Assembly: GCA_030583805.1 (NCBI GenBank)
Contig: CP129476.1
Coordinates: 181,453-245,452, forward strand
Direction: 5' to 3'
Length of the DNA: 64,000 nucleotides
Source: Patescibacteria group bacterium
GTDB taxonomy: Bacteria; Patescibacteriota; Patescibacteriia; SG8-24; DYFX01
In this document: positions 48,807 through 60,526 of the stretch, in pieces
Layout of the letters: each line of letters opens with the position of its first letter
Position numbering within the stretch: the first letter of the stretch is position 1
Position numbers and translations under genes: made by a program
Notes under the pieces: generated by a model
What the model saw: only the letters and a program-made list of their open reading frames with translations
Database searches by the model: none
What the model was told of the DNA's origin: nothing

Positions 48807-51800
48807 TTACGTGCGGGTCAACGTCTGCGTGTCGGTCGGAAGAATCTTGATAAGTGCCCCGTTCAACCAATCATCCGAGATGTTCGCGTTGTTGACGGAT
48901 ACGTTCGTATCAAGCGTCCACGTGTGCGGAATCAGGCTGTTGTCGGACCAGATCAGGTTGGCGCTGGTGCCGGAGCTGCCGATGACCGGGTCCAGCGGGC
49001 CGGATCCGAGGTTCAGTTCGCCCGACGTGGTCGAAGCGTCGCCAAGCAGCTTCGTGCTGATGGACTCACCGGAAGTATCGGCGCCGCTCACGTTCAACCG
49101 CAACTCGAATCGCTTCGAAGTGCCGGCAGCGATCGTTACTTCGTCGGCGAAGACCACACGGACCGTACAGACGACACTCGTGGCCGTCGAACACGTTGTG
49201 AAGTCGATCTGGCCGGCGTAGTTCGTGCCCTGGCCGTATTCGCGGACGTTGCTGTCGGACAGCGACGTGCCGGTGGCCGAAAGGTCCGTGCCGCCGACGT
49301 TGTTCATGCTGATCTCAAAGGTCAGCTTCTTCAGCGAAACCTGCTCGGCCGCGTCGGCCGCAACCATGAAGTGCGAGACGACCTGCGTACCGCTCGACAA
49401 CGTCGAGGTCGACAGGTTGACCGGAGTGATCGTCATCTTGGTTTTCACGTACGTCTTCTGGCGGCTGGCAAGGTCGTTCGTGGAGCCGGAGGTCGAGATC
49501 GTGCTCGAACCTGCGGACGTGCCGCGCACTTCGAACGTGCTCGTATCGGCAGTGCCGCAACCGCTGCTGTTCTCATTGACGCCGTCGCCATCGCACAGGT
49601 AGACGGTCAGCGGGTAACCCGTTTCGCCGTCGGATTGAATGTCCGAAGCCGGAACAAGCTCGACTTTGACCGTGAGGTTCTTGGAGCTGTCCTTCGGAAC
49701 GACGAACGAGAAGTTCGAGAAGTCGGCGTGTCCGGACGTGTTCGCCGTAATCGGTCCGGCCAGAAGGTTCGAGCCGTCGTAGAGCGATACACCGCGTACC
49801 AAACCGTAGTTCGGGACGCTGATGCGCACCTTCGTAAGCTTGAGATCTTCAGTCTGGGCGGTGAAGCGGTATTTCGCGACGACGGAGGTCGTTCCAGCAA
49901 GAACGAAACCGGCTTCCGATTCCGTGTCATCCGGAGCGAGCGCGTAGGTCATGGTGCCGCTCGTCGAGATGATCATGCTGGCGGATTGTGCCGAACCCGA
50001 CTTCGAGACGGAGTTGCCGTCCATGTCCTGCGCCGTCACGTTCGCGTTGGCGACGGAGAAGGCTACGGTGTCGTTCAGGTTCGCGATCGAACCGGAAAGG
50101 TTACCGACGAGGGCGAGGGTGACCGTCTGACCGGCCGGAATCGTCAAGTTCATGTTGGTGAACTGGAGGAGACCGCCATCAACCGAGGCGCACGACGCCG
50201 TGGACGAGGTCGGACTCTTGGTGTCACCCACCTGCGTGGTGCCATTCATGAGCTTGGCCGTGAGCAAGATGTCGGTGGCGAACTTGTCGGACGAGCCCGT
50301 GTCGGCGTTGTTTTCACAACCCGTACCGAAGTTCGTGTCGTTGTTCGCATCGACGAGCGTTTGGACGGTCATCGAGGTCACCTTGACGTCGGAGCCCTGG
50401 CCAGCCTTGAGGCTGATACCGGCGAGCTCGACGTTCTGGGAGCCCTGGATGAAGGTCTGCGCAACCGGCGTCGAAGCGGCCGAAACCGTGAGCGATGCCG
50501 CACGGACGGTCATCTGGTTTCCGGTAATCGCGGATGAAGGAACGATGTCCGACGTCGAGACGAAGGTCGAGTTGTCGAGGTTGCGGATGTCGGACGACTG
50601 GAACGCAGCGAGGCTGACACGGCTCAGGTTGCCTTCGAGTGCCGCGGCGCTGGCGACGTCCAGGGTCACCTTGAAGGTGCGGGCCTGGCCGGCGTTCAGG
50701 GTGAAGACGTCCGTATAGACGAGGGACTGGGACGTGTCGTTGGCGTCACCGCCCGACGACGAGCTGCTCAAATCCTTCGGACCAGCGATAACAGAGCCCG
50801 ACGAAACGTCGAGAACTTTGATGTCAGTGTAGTTGGCGGTATTCGCGCTGTGGTTCCAAAGACCGCCCGTGTAGTAGTCCGGGCCATCAGAAGAAACCGT
50901 GAGACGCAGGTTGCGGACTTCGACGTTGGACTGCGAGGCGAGGGTGAAGTTCAAGACTTCCTTGTCCTTGCCGTTGGTCGCAATGTCGGTCGCGGCCGGG
51001 CCGTTGAAGGTGATCGTGATCTGACCGCCCTCAAGCGAGAGGTACGAGCAGTCGCCCGAAGTCGAGGTGCAGGAGTCGCCGTCATACGCGGTGCGCGTGA
51101 CGGAGGCACCGAAGCCGAACGTGCGGCCCGTGGCCCAGACATCGGCGTCTTCCTCGACGTAGAGCTTGATGGTGTCAGCAGAGCGGGTACCGCCGCCGAC
51201 ATCGCCCCAAACTTCATACGTGCGGGTGTTGCCCTTTTCGAGGAGGGTGTTGCCCGTGAGGACGAAGGTCACGCGGTCGCGGTCGTCGAGACCGGCGGCC
51301 GAAGCGACTTCCGTACCAGCCGCCTTCAGCTTGAGGTTGGTCAAAGCCGAGCGGGAGATGTTGCCGCTCTGGAAGAGCGTAACGCGCTTGATGTCGAGGT
51401 CCTCGGCGGCGCCAGCGGAGAGCTGGAACTCGGCGAGCTTGACATTCATCTGACCGACCTTCGGGTTCGTGAGCGAACCGGACTTCGCGATCGTGACAGA
51501 ACCGACAGTCGCCGAAGCGAGCGTCATGTTGTTGCCCGTGACCGGGAGACCGGAAGCCGACGAGGAACCGCTCGAAACGGCGGTGACCTGGAAGGCGTTC
51601 ACGTTACCAGCGCCAGCCGTGCTCGACATCGTCGCGGCGACCCACAGGGTGCGAGTCTGACCGGCGGAGAGGGCGAGGTTCAGGCTGTTGAAGGTGACGT
51701 CGTTCGACGAGCTGTTGACGGAACGGCCCGTGGTCAGACGGGAGTTGCCCTCATACAGGTAGACGTTCGAGAAGTCGGTCGAAGCACCGGCGCCCACGCG

Positions 51801-52514
51801 ATGGAGGACGACGGAGTCGACGACGACCGCAGAACCGGTGCCGTTCGAGACGTTGAACTTGACGAAGTTCACGCCCGTCGCGGACTTCGGCACGGTGGCC
51901 GAGGCCGGAGAGTCGGAAGCGAGCGAGACCGAGACGCCAGAGAGGGAGCCAGGGCCGGAGCTCAGGTTCTTGTCCTGGTTCACGGTCTGGGAGCCGCTCA
52001 TTTCGGCGGTCTTGTCGTAGTCGCCGGCCGAGTTCACCGCGTTGCCAACCGTGTAGTTGGTGAAGAACGCGTCGGAGATGTCGTCGATCTGCGTGTTCCA
52101 GTTGGAACCATACAGAGCGGAGGCGACAGCTTCAGAACCGATCGGGCGGAGGACGCCGCCATGCGAGATGGCGTAGACCTTCGGGTCGGACTGAATCTTG
52201 ATCATCTTCACACCCGGGCGATAGGTGACGTTGCCACCGATCTGGATGGAAGCGAGGTCAGCGTCGGAAATCGTCATGACACCCGAGAAGTTCGAGTACC
52301 ACGTGAAGTACGCTTTGTCGTTCGTGAAGACGTAGCGCTTCATGTCGGCGCCGCAGTAGTACACCGCGGAGAGAGAACCTTTGATGAGACTACCGCTCGT
52401 GCAGCCGGCGGCAGAGGCCTTCAAAGGAGCGACGAGGACGGTCGCCATCACGGACCAGAGAATGGTCGAGAGGACGACGCCCAGCGTCGCGGCCTTTTTT
52501 AATGCGTAAGGCAT
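48807..52514 (-). CDS. giant secreted/cell-surface repeat protein (1235 aa): signal peptide, conserved N-terminal domain, then about 9-10 degenerate beta-rich modules of roughly 100 aa
   Basis: Signal peptide MPYALKKAATLGVVLSTILWSVMATVLVAPLKASA. S/T/G/N-rich. Recurring module ending ...xxGQxRTxxVxxDV. The N-domain is homologous to that of the 58993..60333 protein. Confidence 0.7.
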   Translation of the reverse strand: MPYALKKAATLGVVLSTILWSVMATVLVAPLKASAAGCTSGSLIKGSLSAVYYCGADMKRYVFTNDKAYFTWYSNFSGVMTISDADLASIQIGGNVTYRPGVKMIKIQSDPKVYAISHGGVLRPIGSEAVASALYGSNWNTQIDDISDAFFTNYTVGNAVNSAGDYDKTAEMSGSQTVNQDKNLSSGPGSLSGVSVSLASDSPASATVPKSATGVNFVKFNVSNGTGSAVVVDSVVLHRVGAGASTDFSNVYLYEGNSRLTTGRSVNSSSNDVTFNSLNLALSAGQTRTLWVAATMSSTAGAGNVNAFQVTAVSSGSSSASGLPVTGNNMTLASATVGSVTIAKSGSLTNPKVGQMNVKLAEFQLSAGAAEDLDIKRVTLFQSGNISRSALTNLKLKAAGTEVASAAGLDDRDRVTFVLTGNTLLEKGNTRTYEVWGDVGGGTRSADTIKLYVEEDADVWATGRTFGFGASVTRTAYDGDSCTSTSGDCSYLSLEGGQITITFNGPAATDIATNGKDKEVLNFTLASQSNVEVRNLRLTVSSDGPDYYTGGLWNHSANTANYTDIKVLDVSSGSVIAGPKDLSSSSSGGDANDTSQSLVYTDVFTLNAGQARTFKVTLDVASAAALEGNLSRVSLAAFQSSDIRNLDNSTFVSTSDIVPSSAITGNQMTVRAASLTVSAASTPVAQTFIQGSQNVELAGISLKAGQGSDVKVTSMTVQTLVDANNDTNFGTGCENNADTGSSDKFATDILLTAKLMNGTTQVGDTKSPTSSTASCASVDGGLLQFTNMNLTIPAGQTVTLALVGNLSGSIANLNDTVAFSVANANVTAQDMDGNSVSKSGSAQSASMIISTSGTMTYALAPDDTESEAGFVLAGTTSVVAKYRFTAQTEDLKLTKVRISVPNYGLVRGVSLYDGSNLLAGPITANTSGHADFSNFSFVVPKDSSKNLTVKVELVPASDIQSDGETGYPLTVYLCDGDGVNENSSGCGTADTSTFEVRGTSAGSSTISTSGSTNDLASRQKTYVKTKMTITPVNLSTSTLSSGTQVVSHFMVAADAAEQVSLKKLTFEISMNNVGGTDLSATGTSLSDSNVREYGQGTNYAGQIDFTTCSTATSVVCTVRVVFADEVTIAAGTSKRFELRLNVSGADTSGESISTKLLGDASTTSGELNLGSGPLDPVIGSSGTSANLIWSDNSLIPHTWTLDTNVSVNNANISDDWLNGALIKILPTDTQTLTRT

Positions 52515-52580
52515 GAAATTGGTTAAATAAAAAATTATGCGTAAGAACGTGCTACCCCTAGAATATAAGGTAAATACCCC

Positions 52581-52616
52581 AAAAAAGCAAGACGGCCGCC
52601 GATGGGCGACCGTCTC
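52581..52616 (-). terminator. Rho-independent terminator after the CxxC-x17-CxxC gene (minus strand)
   Basis: GAGACGGTCGCC-CATC-GGCGGCCGTCT followed by TGCTTTTTTGG on the minus strand. Confidence 0.5.
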
Positions 52617-52622
52617 ACTTCA

Positions 52623-53249
52623 TTACTTCTTCTTTTTTGCGACAGCCTTCTTTTTGGGAGAAGCTGTTTTGACCGCGCTCGGCTTCGGCGCTTCCTTCTT
52701 GACTGCAACCTCTTCCTTCTCCGCCTTAGCGGCGACGGCAGGCTTCAGCATGTTCAGAATCGCGTCGAGCTTGGAGTTCAGCGCCTTAAACTGCTCGGCA
52801 TAGTTTTCGCCTTGCGGGCGCGGCGCGGGCATGGACGCGTTTTTGCGGTCCGGAGCGCCGCCCTTGTCGAAGCAGCCGCGGCAATACACGGGGCGCTCCC
52901 CCGTCGGGCGGAACGGCACCTCGCAGCTGTCGCCGCACTTGTCGCACTCGGTCTGGAACATGCGCTTTTCCGGAGCGCCGAATCCACGGCTCTCGGAACG
53001 CTGTTCAAAACGCATATCTCCGCCGCCCTTGTCTTCCTTCTTGAAGCAATTGCTGCAGTAGATCGGTTTGCGCCCGTTCGGTTTGAACGGAACTTGGCAC
53101 GCGTTGCCGCACTCAGCGCACGTCGCGTTGTGCATCTCCGGTTTCGCGAAACCACGGCTGTCGGAACCCCTGTTCCAAGACTGCCCGCCTCCGAACTTCT
53201 TTCCGCCGCCGTAACCTCCTGATTTGTTGTCGCGATGAGAGTTGTACAT
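52623..53249 (-). CDS. small basic protein with two CxxC-x17-CxxC zinc-ribbon units, Gly/Arg-rich N-terminus and Lys-rich C-terminal tail
   Basis: CAEC-17 aa (...VPFKPNGRKPIY)-CSNC and CDKC-17 aa (...VPFRPTGERPVY)-CRGC. N-terminus GGYGGGKKFGGGQSWNRGSDSRGF. Tail AVKTASPKKKAVAKKKK. Confidence 0.6.
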   Translation of the reverse strand: MYNSHRDNKSGGYGGGKKFGGGQSWNRGSDSRGFAKPEMHNATCAECGNACQVPFKPNGRKPIYCSNCFKKEDKGGGDMRFEQRSESRGFGAPEKRMFQTECDKCGDSCEVPFRPTGERPVYCRGCFDKGGAPDRKNASMPAPRPQGENYAEQFKALNSKLDAILNMLKPAVAAKAEKEEVAVKKEAPKPSAVKTASPKKKAVAKKKK

Positions 53250-53329
53250 AGGAACCCGGAGTATACGCTAAAACTCCGAAAAAGTCAAGGGTTTCGGCGA
53301 AAGGGCGTTCCTCGGCCTTAAAGCGGCAA

Positions 53330-53755
53330 TCAAGCCGTCGGTTTGACGTCTTTGGCCGGACGGAGCGAAATCGCAAAAATGATGACGTAAAACACGAGCC
53401 CGTAGGCGCAGGTCGGAAGACCGAGCTGATACGAAGGGGCGTTTCCCGCGAGCCACGACGCGATTTCCTTTTGCGTGAAGTACCCGGCGAAGGCGATGCC
53501 GAGAAGCGACACCGTCACGTTGAATCGCGCCGTCATTTTGGTCGTGAAGGGTCCGTACAAGCCGATCAGCGACACGACGCACATCAAGCCGAACAGCACG
53601 AGTCCGAACCAGCACGCCGGATACCCGAGAAACGTCGGGCACGGCTCGTTAAAGGCGCAGCTTTTCGCGAACAGCTTATAGAAGCTCAAGTACCCGGCGA
53701 ACAGCGTGCCGCCGAGAGAAAGGGCGAATGCCCATTTGAGATATGCGGGTTTCAT
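53330..53755 (-). CDS. hypothetical 4-TM membrane protein with conserved loop cysteines
   Basis: Start at the ATG at 53753-55 (MKPAYLKWAF). Cys pairs KSCAFNEPCP, but no CxxC, so not assigned to VKOR/DsbB. Confidence 0.45.
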   Translation of the reverse strand: MKPAYLKWAFALSLGGTLFAGYLSFYKLFAKSCAFNEPCPTFLGYPACWFGLVLFGLMCVVSLIGLYGPFTTKMTARFNVTVSLLGIAFAGYFTQKEIASWLAGNAPSYQLGLPTCAYGLVFYVIIFAISLRPAKDVKPTA

Positions 53756-53762
53756 AGGAACA

Positions 53763-55688
53763 TTAGAGCGCAAGCGCCGCGAGCGCGCCTTCAGCAACCG
53801 CGTCCGTCACGCGCCGTGCAGACACGGCATCACCGACGACAGCGACTTCTTTAATGAACGATTTGAATTCGGAAGTGACCCCGTCGGTCGGAAACGAACC
53901 GAGACAGAGCACGACCGTATCAGCCGGCAGCATCTTCGAACCGGCGGGGCTCTCAACCGTCACTGATTTCGGCCCGATGCTCATGAGCGCCGTCTCGGTA
54001 TGAATTTTGACGTTCAAACGATTCAGGCGGCCGAGCAAAAGGAAGCGGTCATCGACCGGCGCATCGCTCGCAATAGCGCCAGCCGCTTCAATAATCTTCA
54101 CTTTATGCCCTTTCTCGGCGAGATATTCCGCCGTCTGGGCACCGGCACAACCACCGCCAATCACGACAACGTCACCCGTGGCCTTTACCTTTCCCTCCAA
54201 GAGATCTCGCGAAATAACGACATTCGTGCGCCCGATGCCCGGAATTTTCGGCTTCGTTGCCGTCGAACCCATCGCCAAAATGACGGCGTCAGGCTTCTCG
54301 CTCCTGGCGTGCTCGGGAGCGTACTCGACGCCCAAGCGGATATCGACGCCGAGGCGCCGCACATCGCGCACAAGCGACATGCGCAATTCCTTCCAGCCTT
54401 GGCGATGCGGCGCGGCCTCAGCGGCGAAGAGCTGGCCGCCCAGCTTGGACTTCTTTTCATAAAGCGTGACGCGGTGCCCGCGCGCAGCCGCCGTCTTCGC
54501 AGCCGAAAGCCCCGCCGGGCCTCCGCCGACCACAACGACGGTTTTTTTCCTCTTTGCCGGTTGCGCGAACGCTCCCTCGCGACCCGTTTCAGGATTGACC
54601 GTGCACCAAACATCTTGCTGCGCGAACAACCGGCTGATGCAACCTTGATTGCAAGCGATACACGGATTGATTTCCTCAACGTTCCCGTTCTTCACCTTGT
54701 TCGGCCACTCCGGATCGGCCAGAAGCGTGCGGCCAACCGCGATAAAATCCGCTTCCCCCTTTTTCAAAATTCGCTCCGCGAGTTTTGGATCGCGAATTTT
54801 AGCAACCGCGATGACGGGAATTTTCAACGCACCTTTCACCGCTCGCGCCAAATAGGCCAGCGTTGCGTCCGGCATCGCCATCGGCGGAATCATGTACCCG
54901 CGCGCGTATGAGGCATAGTTGCCGGCGGTGACGTGTACGGCGTCGATACCCGCCTCCTCGAGGCGCTTAGCGATCGCGATCGTATCGAGCAGCGTCAGGC
55001 CGCCTTCGACCATTTCCTCGCCGGAAAGACGGATCGTGACTGGAAAATTCGAACCAACCGCCTTGCGCACGGCTGCGTAGACATCCATCGCGAAGCGCAT
55101 GCGCTTCTGTGCCGTGCCGCCATAAGCGTCGGTACGGCGATTGCTGAATGGAGACAAGAACTGCGTGATCAGATATCCGTGCGCGCCGTGTATTTCCACA
55201 AAATCCAGGCCGGCAGCTTTCGCGCGCGCGGCAGCGCGTCCGTACGCATCGATGACTGAGGAAATTTCCGCGCTCGTCAGTTCGCGCGGCAGCTCGTTGA
55301 CGGTCGGATCAGGCAGGGGCGACGGCGCGACTGGCTGCGTGCCGGTCGTCTTCGAGGACGTCTGTCGACCCGCATGATACAGCTGGATGCCGATCATCGT
55401 GCCGTGCGCATGCGCGGCCGCAACCAATTTCTTCAAACCCGGCACGCATGCGTCGTCGTGCACACCCAGTTCATTCACGAATCCTTTGCCGTCTTGGCGG
55501 ATATAACTCGCTTCCAGGATGATCGTGCCGACGCCTCCACGAGCCACGCGCTCGATATGGTCAACGTACCGTTTCGTAACAAGGCCGTTCTTGTCGGCGT
55601 AGTTTAGCACCATCGGCGGCATCACCAGACGGTTTTTCACTTTTAGTTGGCCGATTCTCCCAGGTGAAAATAGGGCCGTATAGGCCAT
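53763..55688 (-). CDS. 2,4-dienoyl-CoA reductase-like NADH:flavin oxidoreductase (OYE TIM-barrel, 4Fe-4S linker and FAD/NAD(P)-binding domain)
   Basis: OYE-type N-domain (HGAHGYLITQFLSP), CIACNQGC iron-sulfur motif, and a C-terminal VVVVGGGPAGLSAA Rossmann domain. Confidence 0.85.
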   Translation of the reverse strand: MAYTALFSPGRIGQLKVKNRLVMPPMVLNYADKNGLVTKRYVDHIERVARGGVGTIILEASYIRQDGKGFVNELGVHDDACVPGLKKLVAAAHAHGTMIGIQLYHAGRQTSSKTTGTQPVAPSPLPDPTVNELPRELTSAEISSVIDAYGRAAARAKAAGLDFVEIHGAHGYLITQFLSPFSNRRTDAYGGTAQKRMRFAMDVYAAVRKAVGSNFPVTIRLSGEEMVEGGLTLLDTIAIAKRLEEAGIDAVHVTAGNYASYARGYMIPPMAMPDATLAYLARAVKGALKIPVIAVAKIRDPKLAERILKKGEADFIAVGRTLLADPEWPNKVKNGNVEEINPCIACNQGCISRLFAQQDVWCTVNPETGREGAFAQPAKRKKTVVVVGGGPAGLSAAKTAAARGHRVTLYEKKSKLGGQLFAAEAAPHRQGWKELRMSLVRDVRRLGVDIRLGVEYAPEHARSEKPDAVILAMGSTATKPKIPGIGRTNVVISRDLLEGKVKATGDVVVIGGGCAGAQTAEYLAEKGHKVKIIEAAGAIASDAPVDDRFLLLGRLNRLNVKIHTETALMSIGPKSVTVESPAGSKMLPADTVVLCLGSFPTDGVTSEFKSFIKEVAVVGDAVSARRVTDAVAEGALAALAL

Positions 55689-55784
55689 AGATTGAGGGTT
55701 ACGCCCAATAGTATAGCACTTTTCTAACGCAAGACGACCGCCCTGAGCGGTCGATTTCCTTGATTGAACTCTCTCGACACAGCC

Positions 55785-55934
55785 TCATTTCTTTAAATCG
55801 GCGCGCAGCGACAAGAGGCCGAGCGCGGCGAAGAGCGCCGCTTTCAGCCAATTCCCCTGTTGCAGCGCTTCGATCAGCGCGATGCCGAAAAACAGCGCGA
55901 AGATGGCGAGGTTCGTGTAGGCGACGGATTTCAT
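55785..55934 (-). CDS. tiny membrane protein (49 aa)
   Basis: Hand-translated MKSVAYTNLAIFALFFGIALIEALQQGNWLKAALFAALGLLSLRADLKK. Below the ORF-track length cut-off. Speculative. Confidence 0.25.
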   Translation of the reverse strand: MKSVAYTNLAIFALFFGIALIEALQQGNWLKAALFAALGLLSLRADLKK

Positions 55935-55945
55935 ACGAATCGCGT

Positions 55946-56272
55946 TCAACCGCGCATCGAAGCGAGAATGACGAAGAGGAGTACCGTGAAAGCCGCGAGC
56001 TGGCCGATCGTGTAGACCACCATCATGAGGCCCTCGCGTTTTTTTCCGTCGATATAGAGCATGAGCGGCTTGCCGAAAATGAGCATCCCCATCGTCGCCG
56101 CGGACGTCACGAGCAGCAAGAGGAAGCCGATCGGGGCGAGCACGCTGTCGGGCTTGCCGGCGCTGTCAAAAATCCTCTCCGCGTTCTGCATGATCGTCGC
56201 AACGGTGGCGACGTAGGCCACGGCGCCGACGGAGTACGGCAAGCTTTGTTTACAAATCTTCATGTCAAACAT
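55946..56272 (-). CDS. hypothetical small membrane protein (108 aa)
   Basis: Three hydrophobic helices. Competes with a plus-strand ORF (55760..56548) that has non-protein-like, Arg-rich composition. Confidence 0.4.
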   Translation of the reverse strand: MFDMKICKQSLPYSVGAVAYVATVATIMQNAERIFDSAGKPDSVLAPIGFLLLLVTSAATMGMLIFGKPLMLYIDGKKREGLMMVVYTIGQLAAFTVLLFVILASMRG

Positions 56273-56317
56273 AGGTTTCGCTTATGGAGAGTAATAACTA
56301 TATGCCGATACCGGCAT

Positions 56318-57865
56318 TTATATCCTACTCTTAGCACCCCCAATCATGCCAAGGATGGCCAGGACGAGCCCGAGCATCTGCCCTCCCGGACTGTCGTCGA
56401 GCCCGCCGTAGACGACAAGGAACATGCCGAGTGCTATCGCGAGAACGGAGACGAACATCTGCGCTTTCTTCACAGGAGGCTTCCGTCCGGCTTGCTTGCG
56501 CGGATCAAAAAGCGAAGGCTCAAGCCTCTCGCCGTTCAAGAATCGTGAAATGCGCTTGCCTCCGAAAACGGAAGGCAAAATACCGACGCCGTTGCACCCG
56601 AGGTTGTAGAGCAAGACGGGATTCAACGGCTCCGGACCGATAAGGCGCACGCCTTCCGGCGTATAGCCCATGAGGCCGTGCCAGCAAAACGCGTACTCCG
56701 CTTCCTGTCCCGGATGCTTCGCGTAATTGGTACTCAAGAAATCGTCGATGGCGATTTTTGTATCTTCGGCGCATGCTTGGGCGCGGGAATATTCAGCTCC
56801 GTTCGGCAGGACGGCCTCGGGCCCGCCGGTGCACACCAACGTGTGCGCCCTTCCGCTTTCATGCTCGTGCGGGCGGCGCGTCAGATAAAAGTAACTCTCG
56901 CCGATCGGATCACGCGCATCGACTTTCGCTTTCGAAAAATAGCTGATCGCCATCGGCGCCTCGCCGGGCGGCGCGTAATATCCGGCCATGTAGCCGATGC
57001 GCCCGACCACCGAATGATGGAACGAGGTATCGATGTCATTCCCGGCACGGTTGATGATCGAGAAATTTTCAAACCCGTTGGTGCACAGGACGACGTTCTC
57101 CGCGCGCACGATTTTGCCGTTTACCACCAGCTCCGCGGAATCTTTCGACACGTACACCGTTTTGACGGGGCTGCCTTCATAGAGGGCGAAACGGTCCTGA
57201 TAGGCGGCCAGGAGATAGCCGACGACCTCTTCGGAAAACAGCGCGCTGTTCATGCAGCCCTTCTGATACGAAAGCGAGGCGATGTACTGAGGATTGCTCG
57301 TCTCAAGCCGCGCGAGAATGTCGGCTTGCGGAACCACCTCGTACAGACCGTCAAACTCGGCGGAAATGCCCGCGCGCTCATTCCACTCTTCCGCCACGAG
57401 CACGTGTTCGGTGGCAAGGCCGCCGCGTTTTCGGCATTGGTTGTTTTTCAGGTGCTCGACGAGCTGATCCAGGCTCGAAAGACCGGCGTGGCCGACGAAG
57501 CGGTGCAGCGGCGTGCGCAGCTTTCCGTGCGCGACCATCTGATCGATCAACGCCCAGGCCGATTCGATGTCGCGTTGCGCATTCACCGCCGCTTCCAAGC
57601 CGAACTGGTCCGCAAGCTCATGGAGCGGGCGCTCAAAATAACTCGTCACCTGCCCGGCATTGTGCCCCGTCGCTCCGTGCGCGACCTTATCCGCATCGAG
57701 AAGAACGACGTTTTTTTGCGTTTCCAAAAGCGTGAAAAAGGCCGTCGTCACGCCTGCAATGCCGCCACCGACGATCACAACGTCCGTGCGGAGATTCTGA
57801 TCAAGCGGTTTCACAGGCCGCGTCCGTTTCAATTGCTGTATCCAAGGCGAACGGTTGGGAATCAT
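56318..57865 (-). CDS. FAD-dependent oxidoreductase (DAO/glycine-oxidase-like) with C-terminal membrane anchor
   Basis: VVIVGGGIAGVTTA dinucleotide fold. C-terminal MFVSVLAIALGMFLVVYGG ... LGLVLAILGMIGG TM helices. Confidence 0.75.
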   Translation of the reverse strand: MIPNRSPWIQQLKRTRPVKPLDQNLRTDVVIVGGGIAGVTTAFFTLLETQKNVVLLDADKVAHGATGHNAGQVTSYFERPLHELADQFGLEAAVNAQRDIESAWALIDQMVAHGKLRTPLHRFVGHAGLSSLDQLVEHLKNNQCRKRGGLATEHVLVAEEWNERAGISAEFDGLYEVVPQADILARLETSNPQYIASLSYQKGCMNSALFSEEVVGYLLAAYQDRFALYEGSPVKTVYVSKDSAELVVNGKIVRAENVVLCTNGFENFSIINRAGNDIDTSFHHSVVGRIGYMAGYYAPPGEAPMAISYFSKAKVDARDPIGESYFYLTRRPHEHESGRAHTLVCTGGPEAVLPNGAEYSRAQACAEDTKIAIDDFLSTNYAKHPGQEAEYAFCWHGLMGYTPEGVRLIGPEPLNPVLLYNLGCNGVGILPSVFGGKRISRFLNGERLEPSLFDPRKQAGRKPPVKKAQMFVSVLAIALGMFLVVYGGLDDSPGGQMLGLVLAILGMIGGAKSRI

Positions 57866-57904
57866 GTGTTTGCGATGCGTTACGTCTCGTCGGGCTGCCG
57901 GCGG

Positions 57905-58861
57905 TTAACCGCGCAGAATGATCGCGCCCGTGTAGGCGCTGTAGAGCAAAATCATGGCGCCGCCTTGCCAGCGTTCCAGGAGATGGCGTTTTCCGAGAAA
58001 CATCCAGATGAACAGGAGCGCGCTGCTCACGACCACCATCCAGAGATCCAAGTTCAACTCGGGCTTGAACGGCAGCGGTCGAATGATCGAACTGATGCCG
58101 AGAATCCAAAAAATATTGAAAATGTTCGAACCGATGACGTTTCCGACGGCGATATCCGCGTTTTTTTTGATAGCCGCCACGATGGAGGTGCTGAGCTCCG
58201 GAAGCGACGTGCCGATCGCGACGATCGTGAGACCGATCAACGCATCGCTCATTCCGAAACGGCTTGCGATGACGGACGCGCTGCTTACGATCCACTGCCC
58301 GCCGACGGCGAGTCCCGCGAAGCCGCCAACGATGCGGGCTACGGAACCAAGCCCGGAATAGACGCGCGGAGCGGGCTGCTCGTCCGTTCCAACCTGTTTC
58401 GCGATGCCGAACGTGTAGTACAGGAAGATGATGAAAAACGCGATCAGCGCCACGCCGTCGCTCCGCGTGAGCGCATTGTGCGCGACACGATCGACAATTG
58501 CGTCGTTCGCCATGACGAGCAGCAGGACGGCAGCGAGAAGCGCCATGGGGATCTCTTTCCAAACGGTCCCCTTCCCCACCTTGATCGGCATGATCATCGC
58601 CACGATGCCGAGAATCAGGAGCGTGTTGACGATATTGCTCCCCACGATGTTACCGATGGCGATATCCGCGTTGCCGTTGAACGACGCGAAGAGGTTCACG
58701 AACAATTCAGGCGCGCTCGTGCCGAACGCGACGATCGTAAGGCCGATCGCCAGATTCGAAACGCGCATTTTTTTCGCCACCGAAGAAGCGCCGTCTACCA
58801 GAAACTCCGCGCCCTTAATCAGCACGATAAAACCGAGTAAGAGCAAGAGATACGTCATCAT
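57905..58861 (-). CDS. Ca2+/Na+ antiporter (CaCA family, YrbG-like)
   Basis: Two alpha-repeat signatures, GTSAPEL and GTSLPEL. Confidence 0.85.
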   Translation of the reverse strand: MMTYLLLLLGFIVLIKGAEFLVDGASSVAKKMRVSNLAIGLTIVAFGTSAPELFVNLFASFNGNADIAIGNIVGSNIVNTLLILGIVAMIMPIKVGKGTVWKEIPMALLAAVLLLVMANDAIVDRVAHNALTRSDGVALIAFFIIFLYYTFGIAKQVGTDEQPAPRVYSGLGSVARIVGGFAGLAVGGQWIVSSASVIASRFGMSDALIGLTIVAIGTSLPELSTSIVAAIKKNADIAVGNVIGSNIFNIFWILGISSIIRPLPFKPELNLDLWMVVVSSALLFIWMFLGKRHLLERWQGGAMILLYSAYTGAIILRG

Positions 58862-58992
58862 AAGGGTGTGGCGAAATAGGCGGTGGAGCCCCTTCGTGCC
58901 GGGCTACCCCTATTCTACCCCAGAATAACACCTTGGCAATCAAAAACCCGCCACGTGTGTGGCGGGCTTGAGCCAAAGGCTTCGGAAAGGCG

Positions 58993-60333
58993 CTAGTTGT
59001 TCGCCGGCGTCGTGAACGTGAGTTCGGACGAAGCCGTCGTGTTTCCCGCCGCGTCAGAGGCGATGATAATCGCGTGATAGGTCGTCTCGGGCGAGAGACC
59101 GGTCAATGCGACGTCATGCGCGCTGGCGGCGACGGTCACGGCGACCGTCGACGTTCCGCTCGTGTCGACGGGCGTGCTGGTGCTCGAATAGACGGCCGCA
59201 GTCACGTTTTCATTGGTCGTGAAGAGCAGGTGCGCGGACGTCGCCACGATGCTGCCAACCGACGACGTAAGGAAGGTCGGTGCCGTCGTGTCCGGCTGGG
59301 CCAGCGTCGTGAACATCACTTCAGACGAGGTCGTCGAGTTTCCAGATCCATCCGTGACCACGACGCGGACGTAATACGTCGTCGAAGCGGCGAGTCCCGT
59401 CAGATTGATGCTGTGGGTGACGGACGACGAAGCGCTCGCGACAAAACTGGCGGACGAGCCGGTGTCGACCGGCGTCGAAGTCGAAGAATAGACCTTCGCG
59501 CTCACGGACTCATTGGCGGTAAGAAGAACGCGTGCGGAAGACGTTGTGACGCTGTCGGTCGAGAGTCCGGTGATCGTAGGGGTGGTCGTGTCGTTGTTGT
59601 CATCATCGTCCTCATCATCGTCATCGTGGGGGCAGCGACCTTCCGTGTCGCCATGGCCGATGTGCGCCGGGAGCGACGGACGAGCGATCGCGATCGTGTG
59701 AGCCTTATCCCCGCCCGCCTTGTGGCAAACGAGCACCTTGTTTTTGCCGAAGCCGTCGTTCTCGAACGCGTCGTCGGACGCGCCGCGCGCGCGGAGTTTC
59801 GAAAGGCGCTTTTCGCGGAGCGTCTTGATGAGATCGGAGGATTTGCGCTCGCGCTCAGGCTTGAAGTCCCTTTCGTGCTCGACATCCGCGCCGAACGTAT
59901 AGTCGACGAAGAAGGCGTCCGACAAGTCGTCGACCATCTGGTTCCAGCGCTCGCCAAAGAGCGCGCGGGCCACGGCTTCGGACTTCAGCCAGCGGAGCAC
60001 GCCGCCTTCATCCACCGCGTACACCTTGGGGTCGGTCTGGAGTTTGACGAGGCGCTTCGCCGGCTTGTACGGCACATTGCCGGTCAGCGGATGCTCGCTC
60101 AGCGTCGCGTCGTCCACTTCGACGACGCCGTCGAAATTCGCGTACCAGCTGGCAAAAATGCGGGCGTTCGGGAACACCTGTCGCCCGAGATCCTCGTCGA
60201 GGTAGTACACCGCCGAGGAAGAGACGGACTTCACCAGCTGGCCGGGAGCCAGCAAGGGGCCCTGCGCGCCGACCGCAGCCGGCATGGCGCCAAGCAACAG
60301 CGCCAAGGAGAGCATGAATGAAACCTTCTTCAT
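58993..60333 (-). CDS. secreted protein (446 aa): signal peptide, N-domain shared with the giant repeat protein, acidic linker, two fibronectin-III-like repeats
   Basis: Signal peptide MKKVSFMLSLALLLGAMPAAVGAQG. N-domain AVYYLDEDLGRQVFPN ... DPKVYAVDEGGVLRWLKSEAVARALFG aligns with AVYYCGADMKRYVFTN ... DPKVYAISHGGVLRPIGSEAVASALYG. DDDDEDDDD linker. Two repeats ending LTGLxxxTTYxxxxxxxDxxGNxTxSSExxFTT. Confidence 0.7.
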   Translation of the reverse strand: MKKVSFMLSLALLLGAMPAAVGAQGPLLAPGQLVKSVSSSAVYYLDEDLGRQVFPNARIFASWYANFDGVVEVDDATLSEHPLTGNVPYKPAKRLVKLQTDPKVYAVDEGGVLRWLKSEAVARALFGERWNQMVDDLSDAFFVDYTFGADVEHERDFKPERERKSSDLIKTLREKRLSKLRARGASDDAFENDGFGKNKVLVCHKAGGDKAHTIAIARPSLPAHIGHGDTEGRCPHDDDDEDDDDNNDTTTPTITGLSTDSVTTSSARVLLTANESVSAKVYSSTSTPVDTGSSASFVASASSSVTHSINLTGLAASTTYYVRVVVTDGSGNSTTSSEVMFTTLAQPDTTAPTFLTSSVGSIVATSAHLLFTTNENVTAAVYSSTSTPVDTSGTSTVAVTVAASAHDVALTGLSPETTYHAIIIASDAAGNTTASSELTFTTPANN

Positions 60334-60526
60334 AACCGTAAAAGATGAGTGAATAAGGATCACGTACCAAAATCCGCCTTATACGCGAAAATGGCTTGTC
60401 GCTATGCTATGACGCGCGAGAACGGGCTTTCTTACGCATATTGGGCCGCGCGTACAGTGGCCCCGGCCAGTCTACCACAGGGGAAAGCGCCCCAAGAGAA
60501 TGAACAATGCGCCTCCTTTTAGAAAA

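Follow-up and report, generated by a model that had tools for sequence, protein, structure and literature searches.

A 64,000-nucleotide stretch of Patescibacteria DNA (contig CP129476.1, positions 181,453 to 245,452; hereafter the window) encodes two secreted proteins, A and B, which share an N-terminal domain that we call the head. We consider it reasonably likely that the head is a new, Patescibacteria-wide, non-covalent cell-wall anchor, carried here by protein A, most likely the surface-layer (S-layer) subunit of this organism, and by protein B, a surface protein with Fn3 domains. The evidence comes from homology, fold prediction, module architecture, exchange of the head on a homologous body and fusion partners.

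Analysis by BLASTP confirmed that the heads of A and B are related, with 46% identity across 148 aa (E 1e-42), and that they directly follow the signal peptides. Both open reading frames (ORFs) were found where a preliminary description of the window had placed them, both with canonical Sec signal peptides, in agreement with its claim of two secreted proteins, and the similarity that it reported thus survives alignment statistics. The three conserved blocks that it listed were all found, except that the first residue of the second block is S in A and T in B. The shared domain comprises approximately 145 residues and was matched by no Pfam-A or NCBIfam model at E ≤ 1, so that it is as nameless among known families as it had been said to be. 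As judged from the alignments, the head is a real, highly significant and uncatalogued domain. Searches by tblastn with either domain identified these two copies only within the window. Matches to antibody heavy-chain sequences in the PDB were dismissed as spurious, being due to a coincidental 'AVYYC' motif, and there were no other PDB matches.

The strongest evidence for wall anchoring comes from the homologues of the body of A. A search with the body alone (aa 186-1235) matched 283 proteins at E ≤ 1e-3. Among the best 120 of these, the full-length homologues are typically 1120-1350 aa long, and nearly all align over approximately 99% of the query at 35-100% identity. One protein is identical to A (P0144, WKZ29346.1; QY323_01290 of a 'Patescibacteria group bacterium', on a 1.167-Mb contig). 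The N-terminal regions of 115 homologues were typed, and 72 of them carry the same head as A. Approximately 19 instead carry a PG_binding_1 domain at residues ~70-140, often after a coiled-coil-like stretch; 14 of these assignments come from precomputed Pfam annotations, one from a Pfam scan and four from reading of the N-terminal motif only. A direct Pfam scan confirmed five of the 14 flagged domains, and the PG_binding_1-headed homologues in the scan include P0348, P0350, P0376, P0381 and P0336. Three N-terminal SLH domains are present in another four homologues, three of them identified by Pfam scan at E 1e-23 to 1e-28 (P0356, P0360 and P0366) and the fourth from precomputed Pfam annotation. 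The other homologues display a divergent two-repeat relative of the head (6 of 115; hhalign E 3.3e-10, probability 96.7), a three-repeat relative (11 of 115; hhalign E 3.2e-5, probability 72.7) or a truncated N-terminus (3 of 115). Neither PG_binding_1 (PF01471) nor SLH (PF00395, at E ≤ 1) was matched by A or B in the Pfam search.

PG_binding_1 and SLH domains are the classic wall anchors of S-layer proteins. Since these textbook anchors replace the head on a collinear, homologous body, the head is itself likely to be a wall anchor. The preliminary description had left the choice between 'anchoring or recognition', and of these two, anchoring is better supported by the occurrence of PG_binding_1 or three SLH domains in exactly the position of the head.

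The body family extends further than the typed homologues. A search from a PG_binding_1-headed member retrieved 761 more relatives at E ≤ 1e-20, mostly of Paceibacteria type (Jorgensen-, Lipton- and Parcubacteria). Across many Patescibacteria classes, the body is strongly conserved in size, architecture and sequence. In several Patescibacteria genomes, two S-layer-type paralogues are located on one contig, sometimes a few kb apart (L010/L044 on OY970181.1 at ~583-599 kb; P0291/P0208, which are AAB554_01030/_01020; P0275/P0276; P0301/P0343), which suggests alternative or two-component surface layers.

The head itself is abundant and is found on many other proteins. A word-indexed search with the head profile identified 192 proteins, and the taxon names given by the sources were all Patescibacteria (Uhrbacteria, Veblenbacteria, Parcubacteria, 'Patescibacteria group'). 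An exhaustive HMMER scan of 1.84 billion cluster representatives (50% identity clusters) identified 5,596 proteins at E ≤ 1e-3, of which 2,915 reach E ≤ 1e-30. There are at least 595 head loci in the GTDB species representatives, in Uhr-, Falkow-, Buchanan-, Parcubacteria and similar groups, and several copies may be present in a single genome, such as three in the 1.19-Mb chromosome OY970181.1. Many third-party-annotation records of metagenome-assembled genomes with a head gene are titled 'uncultured Gammaproteobacteria' (L003, L005, L006, L019 and many others). The presence of a homologue of the A body in L019 points to mislabelling and makes these titles unreliable. Where the sources are reliably named, the head is confined to Patescibacteria. 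The idea of a lineage-specific family with a common head and variable stalks agrees with these results for the head, which is combined with many different bodies; it does not hold for the body of A, which is a conserved family in its own right.

Among 355 instances, the head is N-terminal, after the signal peptide, in 312, C-terminal in 39 and internal in four; 14 proteins of this set contain two copies. Pfam scans of approximately 110 non-S-layer members, together with precomputed Pfam annotations, identified enzymes (GH10, GH5, GH114, Peptidase_C25 and trypsin-like proteases) as well as non-enzymatic domains (right-handed beta-helix, ice-binding-like, cupredoxin, He_PIG, Big_7, Big_1, Big_5 and Fn3) as partners. 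In P0014 and P0033, the head is located C-terminal to Peptidase_M23, in a lysostaphin-like arrangement. For the best 80 GTDB loci, the head is followed by an S-layer-type body in 23 and by something else in 57. By analogy with SLH in Bacillus or CWB2 in Clostridioides, this distribution is the pattern that a general surface-display module would show. A single contig from a viral collection also contains the head (L081 584..2089 (+), IMG/VR IMGVR_UViG_3300033066_000406). The encoded protein of 501 aa has a signal peptide, an N-terminal head and a beta-rich Ig-like body, is not a lysin and is encoded close to one end of the contig (38 kb). Either a phage carries this surface protein, or the prophage call includes cellular DNA at its edge.

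The body of A consists of six related immunoglobulin (Ig)-like beta-sandwich modules of approximately 135-195 aa and a 79-aa C-terminal segment, as resolved by profile searches and an AlphaFold2 model. This replaces the nine or ten modules of about 100 aa proposed earlier, and the GQxRT..V..DV-like strand that had been described near the module end is indeed present once in each of the six. Whole-protein BLASTP of A against itself gave the identity match only and windowed BLAST gave only weak repeat signals, so that profiles were needed to resolve the modules; hidden Markov models (HMMs) of modules 1 and 2 also match four further regions of A at E 1e-5 to 4e-7. The model of the 1200 mature residues, built from an 81-sequence alignment (mean predicted local distance difference test score, pLDDT, 89.8), displays the head, a short disordered linker and an all-beta chain. 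Mature A has a mass of 124 kDa, a pI of 4.65 and a composition rich in S/T/A/G/V. In the 81-sequence alignment, three residues (W1154, S1155, D1156 in mature numbering) never vary. This W-S-D is the sole invariant tri-residue motif of the family and is located in its least-conserved region, the C-terminal segment, where H, D-W, G and P positions are also nearly invariant; the segment is possibly a contact at the lattice apex.

Conservation decreases along the protein. Over 70 orthologues that carry the head, the mean identity to A is 65% for the head, 57, 53, 50, 50, 47 and 40% for modules 1 to 6, and 39% for the C-terminal segment. Such a gradient would be expected of a protein with its head towards a conserved wall ligand and its tip pointing outward. 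It fits an N-terminus that lies near the wall and is constrained by the ligand, with a distal end that is exposed and evolves fast, in agreement with the lattice orientation published in a preprint (10.1101/2024.05.28.596244).

These results bear on the main rival explanation, that the head is a lectin or carbohydrate-binding domain for host or substrate recognition, used for attachment of episymbionts to the host wall or for targeting of hydrolases and not for self-anchoring. Fusions to GH10, GH5, GH114 and proteases are typical of carbohydrate-binding modules, some of the invariant residues of the head are aromatic or charged (R, F, K, Y, W), and peptidoglycan-binding-domain proteins of Patescibacteria have been speculated to serve host attachment (PMC10936435). 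However, members of the body family have the head where others have SLH or PG_binding_1, which are anchors to the cell's own wall. Conservation is also highest in the head and lowest at the distal end, whereas a host-facing tip would be expected to show the reverse, and in the published lattice model the C-terminus and not the N-terminus is outermost (10.1101/2024.05.28.596244). Both the head swaps and the gradient of conservation thus speak against a lectin role, and we regard it as unlikely.

The body of A is not new. According to the 2024 preprint, an S-layer protein of Patescibacteria was predicted by scanning a Nealsonbacteria genome; it has six Ig-like domains, with examples of 1131-1274 aa, and homologues in many classes, and was predicted to form a hexagonal (p6) lattice with the C-terminus at the tip, outermost (10.1101/2024.05.28.596244). 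The preprint also reports that, in two species, homologues rank within the top five secreted proteins by expression (10.1101/2024.05.28.596244; Kuroda et al., PMC10936435), and peptidoglycan-binding domains and similar structures were noted in those expressed proteins by Kuroda et al. (PMC10936435). Protein A has a signal peptide, a head where its homologues have PG_binding_1 or SLH, and six beta-sandwich modules, and proteins of its size headed by peptidoglycan-binding domains are homologous to its body over approximately 99% of the length. Based on size, six-module architecture, peptidoglycan-binding heads and taxonomy, the body family of A is very probably the six-Ig-domain S-layer protein of the preprint. 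The head of A is not described in the accessible text of the preprint.

A second rival explanation leaves the head as an anchor and takes A for a large adhesin or fibre-like surface protein and not a lattice-forming S-layer subunit. It draws on the facts that we infer the lattice in this organism, that some genomes contain two or three paralogues, and that the Foldseek matches of the whole A model were all generic Ig or macroglobulin arrays, the adhesin PrgB among them, and gave no functional lead. The strong conservation of size, architecture and sequence across classes speaks against it, as do the S-layer-like six-domain architecture, acidic pI and composition, and the lattice prediction and high expression that were published for apparent homologues (10.1101/2024.05.28.596244, PMC10936435). 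We give the adhesin reading a low probability, and a role as S-layer subunit remains the most likely one for A.

The fold of the head was modelled with AlphaFold2 from a 100-sequence alignment (pLDDT 95.8; predicted template modelling (TM) score, pTM, 0.87). In the model, a beta-beta-beta-alpha-beta-alpha-beta unit at mature residues ~8-61 is repeated at ~69-125, and two short helices come after the second unit. A profile-profile comparison of the two halves covers 56 columns (hhalign E 1e-3), a weak alignment that nevertheless supports an internal duplication. The nearest solved fold is that of the EccB1 repeat domains (Foldseek E 6e-3, probability 0.93), which their crystallographers likened to the wall-binding phage protein PlyCB (PMC4769845); the EccB profile (PF05108) was not matched by A or B in Pfam. 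Among viral structures, the head best resembles a Rhodococcus phage protein of 115 aa (E 1e-5, TM 0.76). A relation to phage lysins was considered and rejected, the lysin-like BFVD matches being not significant and the PHROGs matches weak and to families without known function.

Two cysteines of the A head, Cys38 and Cys57, covary almost perfectly: both are present in 76 instances, neither in 264 and one alone in eight. The covariation indicates a disulfide between them and an extracytoplasmic location of the head. Protein B has neither cysteine in its head. The sequence 'AAGC' in A could be read as a lipoprotein signal; this was rejected, since that cysteine covaries with a second cysteine within the domain and is also found in C-terminal copies of the head. 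A motif, (S/T)-(I/P)-(D/N)-I-N-x-D-K-G-L, is present after N-terminal heads and before C-terminal heads (homologues P0004-P0035), and may dock on the same surface of the head from either side. The corresponding residues of A (aa ~175-185, VNQDKNL) are modelled as two well-packed helices with pLDDT >95.

A third explanation, that the head is an oligomerisation or lattice-nucleating domain which joins subunits at a symmetry axis or docks accessory proteins without wall contact, would account for the packing of EccB repeat domains in a multimeric secretion complex (PMC4769845) and for a head common to layer subunit and accessory proteins by co-assembly, but is very improbable given that the head occurs at either terminus of unrelated enzymes, sometimes twice per protein, that it is replaced by monomeric glycan-binding anchors in orthologues and that a disordered linker separates it from the body.

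Several points weigh against the head as a wall anchor of an S-layer protein. Wall binding, the ligand and lattice formation are what we infer from the observations. The match to EccB1 is borderline (E 6e-3, TM ~0.3), so that the structural link to wall binding is indirect; wall binding by EccB1 itself is only a hypothesis (PMC4769845), and PlyCB is absent from the Foldseek matches of the head. Glycoside hydrolase fusions would also be expected of a carbohydrate module that binds substrate or host. Beyond close relatives, neither the head nor the body has conserved neighbouring genes. A cluster look-up of the length-matched homologues retrieved none of the published S-layer accessions (A0A1G2EN61, GMX59286.1 and others).

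With these points taken into account, wall anchoring by the head remains our preferred reading, and the two proteins would work as follows. A and B would be exported by Sec and their signal peptides removed. The head, consisting of two beta/alpha repeats and stapled by a disulfide in A, would bind the cell's own wall non-covalently, through peptidoglycan or a wall-linked polymer. In A, it would tether a chain of six Ig-like modules that assemble into a hexagonal S-layer with the C-terminus outward. In B, it would hold two Fn3 domains off the wall on an acidic linker. B would then be a surface protein that accompanies the S-layer, as SLH proteins do in Bacillus and CWB2 proteins in Clostridioides.

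A broader proposal, which we put forward tentatively and with less confidence than the anchoring role itself, is that the head could be the founding member of a superfamily of envelope-binding repeats of ~55-60 aa, with two-repeat, divergent two-repeat and three-repeat forms. This superfamily might be the principal wall anchor of Patescibacteria, used by the S-layer subunit, wall hydrolases, glycosidases and proteases, and might share ancestry with the EccB repeats. If so, the surface proteomes of thousands of ultra-small, uncultured bacteria could be listed with one profile, and a lineage-specific wall ligand would be indicated.

The remainder of protein B agrees with the earlier reading of an acidic linker and two Fn3-like repeats. 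The acidic run DDDDEDDDDNND spans aa 237-248, and the C-terminal half matches two Pfam profiles, each in two stretches: fn3 scores 28.6 bits, above its cut-off of 25, and Pur_ac_phosph_N scores 34.6 bits, above its cut-off of 30. The region between head and linker gave no Pfam match at E ≤ 0.1. Its Cys/His-rich motif looks like a small metal- or disulfide-stabilised element, and was absent from 499 related proteins in a regular-expression search. The features of both proteins are listed in Table 1.

Table 1. Features of proteins A and B, with coordinates in the window.
Feature	Residues (aa)	Coordinates	Strand	Basis and remarks
Protein A ORF	1235 aa	48807..52514	-	
A signal peptide, MPYALKK...LKASA/AG (cleavage at slash)	1-35	52410..52514	-	n-region with KK, hydrophobic core, A-S-A cleavage motif; read from sequence
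A head, two tandem ~60-aa repeats and two short C-terminal helices	36-181	51972..52409	-	BLASTP against B, AlphaFold2, hhalign
A head-body linker, flexible	182-192	51939..51971	-	holds mature residues 150-156, the only segment with pLDDT <50 in the 1200-aa model
A Ig-like module 1	193-327	51534..51938	-	module-1 HMM; module-2 HMM cross-match E 1.9e-10; AlphaFold2 all-beta
A Ig-like module 2	328-465	51120..51533	-	module HMMs, AlphaFold2 model
A Ig-like module 3, approximate boundaries	~466-642	50589..51119	-	module-2 HMM E 4.8e-6, module-1 HMM E 2.9e-5; AlphaFold2
A Ig-like module 4, approximate boundaries	~643-836	50007..50588	-	module-1 HMM E 2.2e-6 and 4.4e-7; AlphaFold2
A Ig-like module 5, approximate boundaries	~837-970	49605..50006	-	module-1 HMM E 2.5e-5; AlphaFold2
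A Ig-like module 6, approximate boundaries	~971-1156	49047..49604	-	module-2 HMM E 1e-5; AlphaFold2
A C-terminal segment, 79 aa and stop codon	1157-1235	48807..49046	-	W-S-D motif; no Pfam match
Protein B ORF	446 aa from ATG	58993..60333	-	GTG at 60363 also open
B signal peptide, MKKVSF...AAVGA/QG (cleavage at slash)	1-23	60265..60333	-	read from sequence
B head, same family as A head, without Cys pair	24-160	59854..60264	-	BLASTP, tblastn
B middle region, basic stretch then Cys/His motif VLVCHKAGGDKAHTIAIARPSLPAHIGHGDTEGRCP	161-236	59626..59853	-	read from sequence
B acidic linker DDDDEDDDDNNDTT	237-250	59584..59625	-	read from sequence
B two Fn3-type domains	251-347 and 348-446	58996..59583	-	Pfam

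The gene for protein A forms its own transcription unit. The gene directly upstream, at 52623..53249 (-), encodes two treble-clef zinc fingers (PF23477, E 1e-31) and a lysine-rich tail, and is ended by a GC-rich hairpin with a T-run approximately 60 nt before the ATG of A, which was read from the sequence and was not listed by the terminator scan. No Shine-Dalgarno-like sequence is visible before the ATG of A in the intergenic stretch down to 52515. Two genes upstream of A, at 53330..53797 (-), is a VKOR-like membrane protein of 155 aa (E 2e-5, just below the Pfam gathering score). It might form disulfides in the nearby secreted proteins with paired cysteines and, like the Cys pair of the head, fits an extracytoplasmic setting.

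Patescibacteria account for much of bacterial diversity. Hardly any have been cultured, and they live attached to other cells, so that the envelope is where their biology happens. Most of their surface proteins are annotated as 'hypothetical'. A profile of the head would tag thousands of secreted proteins as wall-anchored and would separate the S-layer anchor from the lattice body; its practical value lies in surface-proteome annotation of a very large uncultured phylum. A recombinant head would be a handle to find the bound wall polymer and to label or capture cells. The series of this domain, PG_binding_1 and SLH on one conserved body provides a clean natural experiment on how S-layer proteins exchange their anchors outside Bacillota.

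Among the closest known systems is the predicted S-layer family (A0A1G2EN61, A0A1F5NRV7, A0A0G1WWP5, A0A1F4NSF7, GMX59286.1). Protein A resembles it in phylum, in size (1235 aa, against 1131-1274 aa), in its signal peptide, in an N-terminal anchoring region followed by six Ig-like domains and in homologues across many classes, and differs from it in having an uncatalogued head instead of PG_binding_1. The EccB1 repeats R1-R4 of the periplasmic core of mycobacterial type VII secretion (PDB 3X3N, 4KK7, 5CYU) are likewise tandem units of ~55 aa in the cell envelope, with a four-stranded sheet and two helices. The head differs from EccB1 in having two repeats instead of four and in lacking both a transmembrane helix and a central beta-sheet domain, and the two have no sequence match and a TM of ~0.3; the likeness is thus at the fold level only, to repeats whose own function is unproven. 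Lysostaphin-type M23 peptidases are resembled by P0014 and P0033, in which Peptidase_M23 is followed by the head at the C-terminus, whereas the targeting domain is not SH3b and A and B have no catalytic domain.

The SLH S-layer systems (Sap, EA1 and the BSLs of Bacillus anthracis; SpaA of Paenibacillus alvei) and the CWB2 system of Clostridioides difficile differ from the head in sequence, with no match to SLH or CWB2 in Pfam, and in fold, the head being modelled as two beta/alpha repeats and not as a three-pronged helical spindle or a toprim-like trimer. They resemble it in organisation: one anchor module is common to the S-layer subunit and to other surface proteins and enzymes, and different lineages have different anchors on a lattice body that is itself conserved, some of the body homologues here carrying three SLH domains. 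The principle of a modular wall anchor for the S-layer and its associated proteins is thus known, and the head that would serve it in Patescibacteria is a new family.

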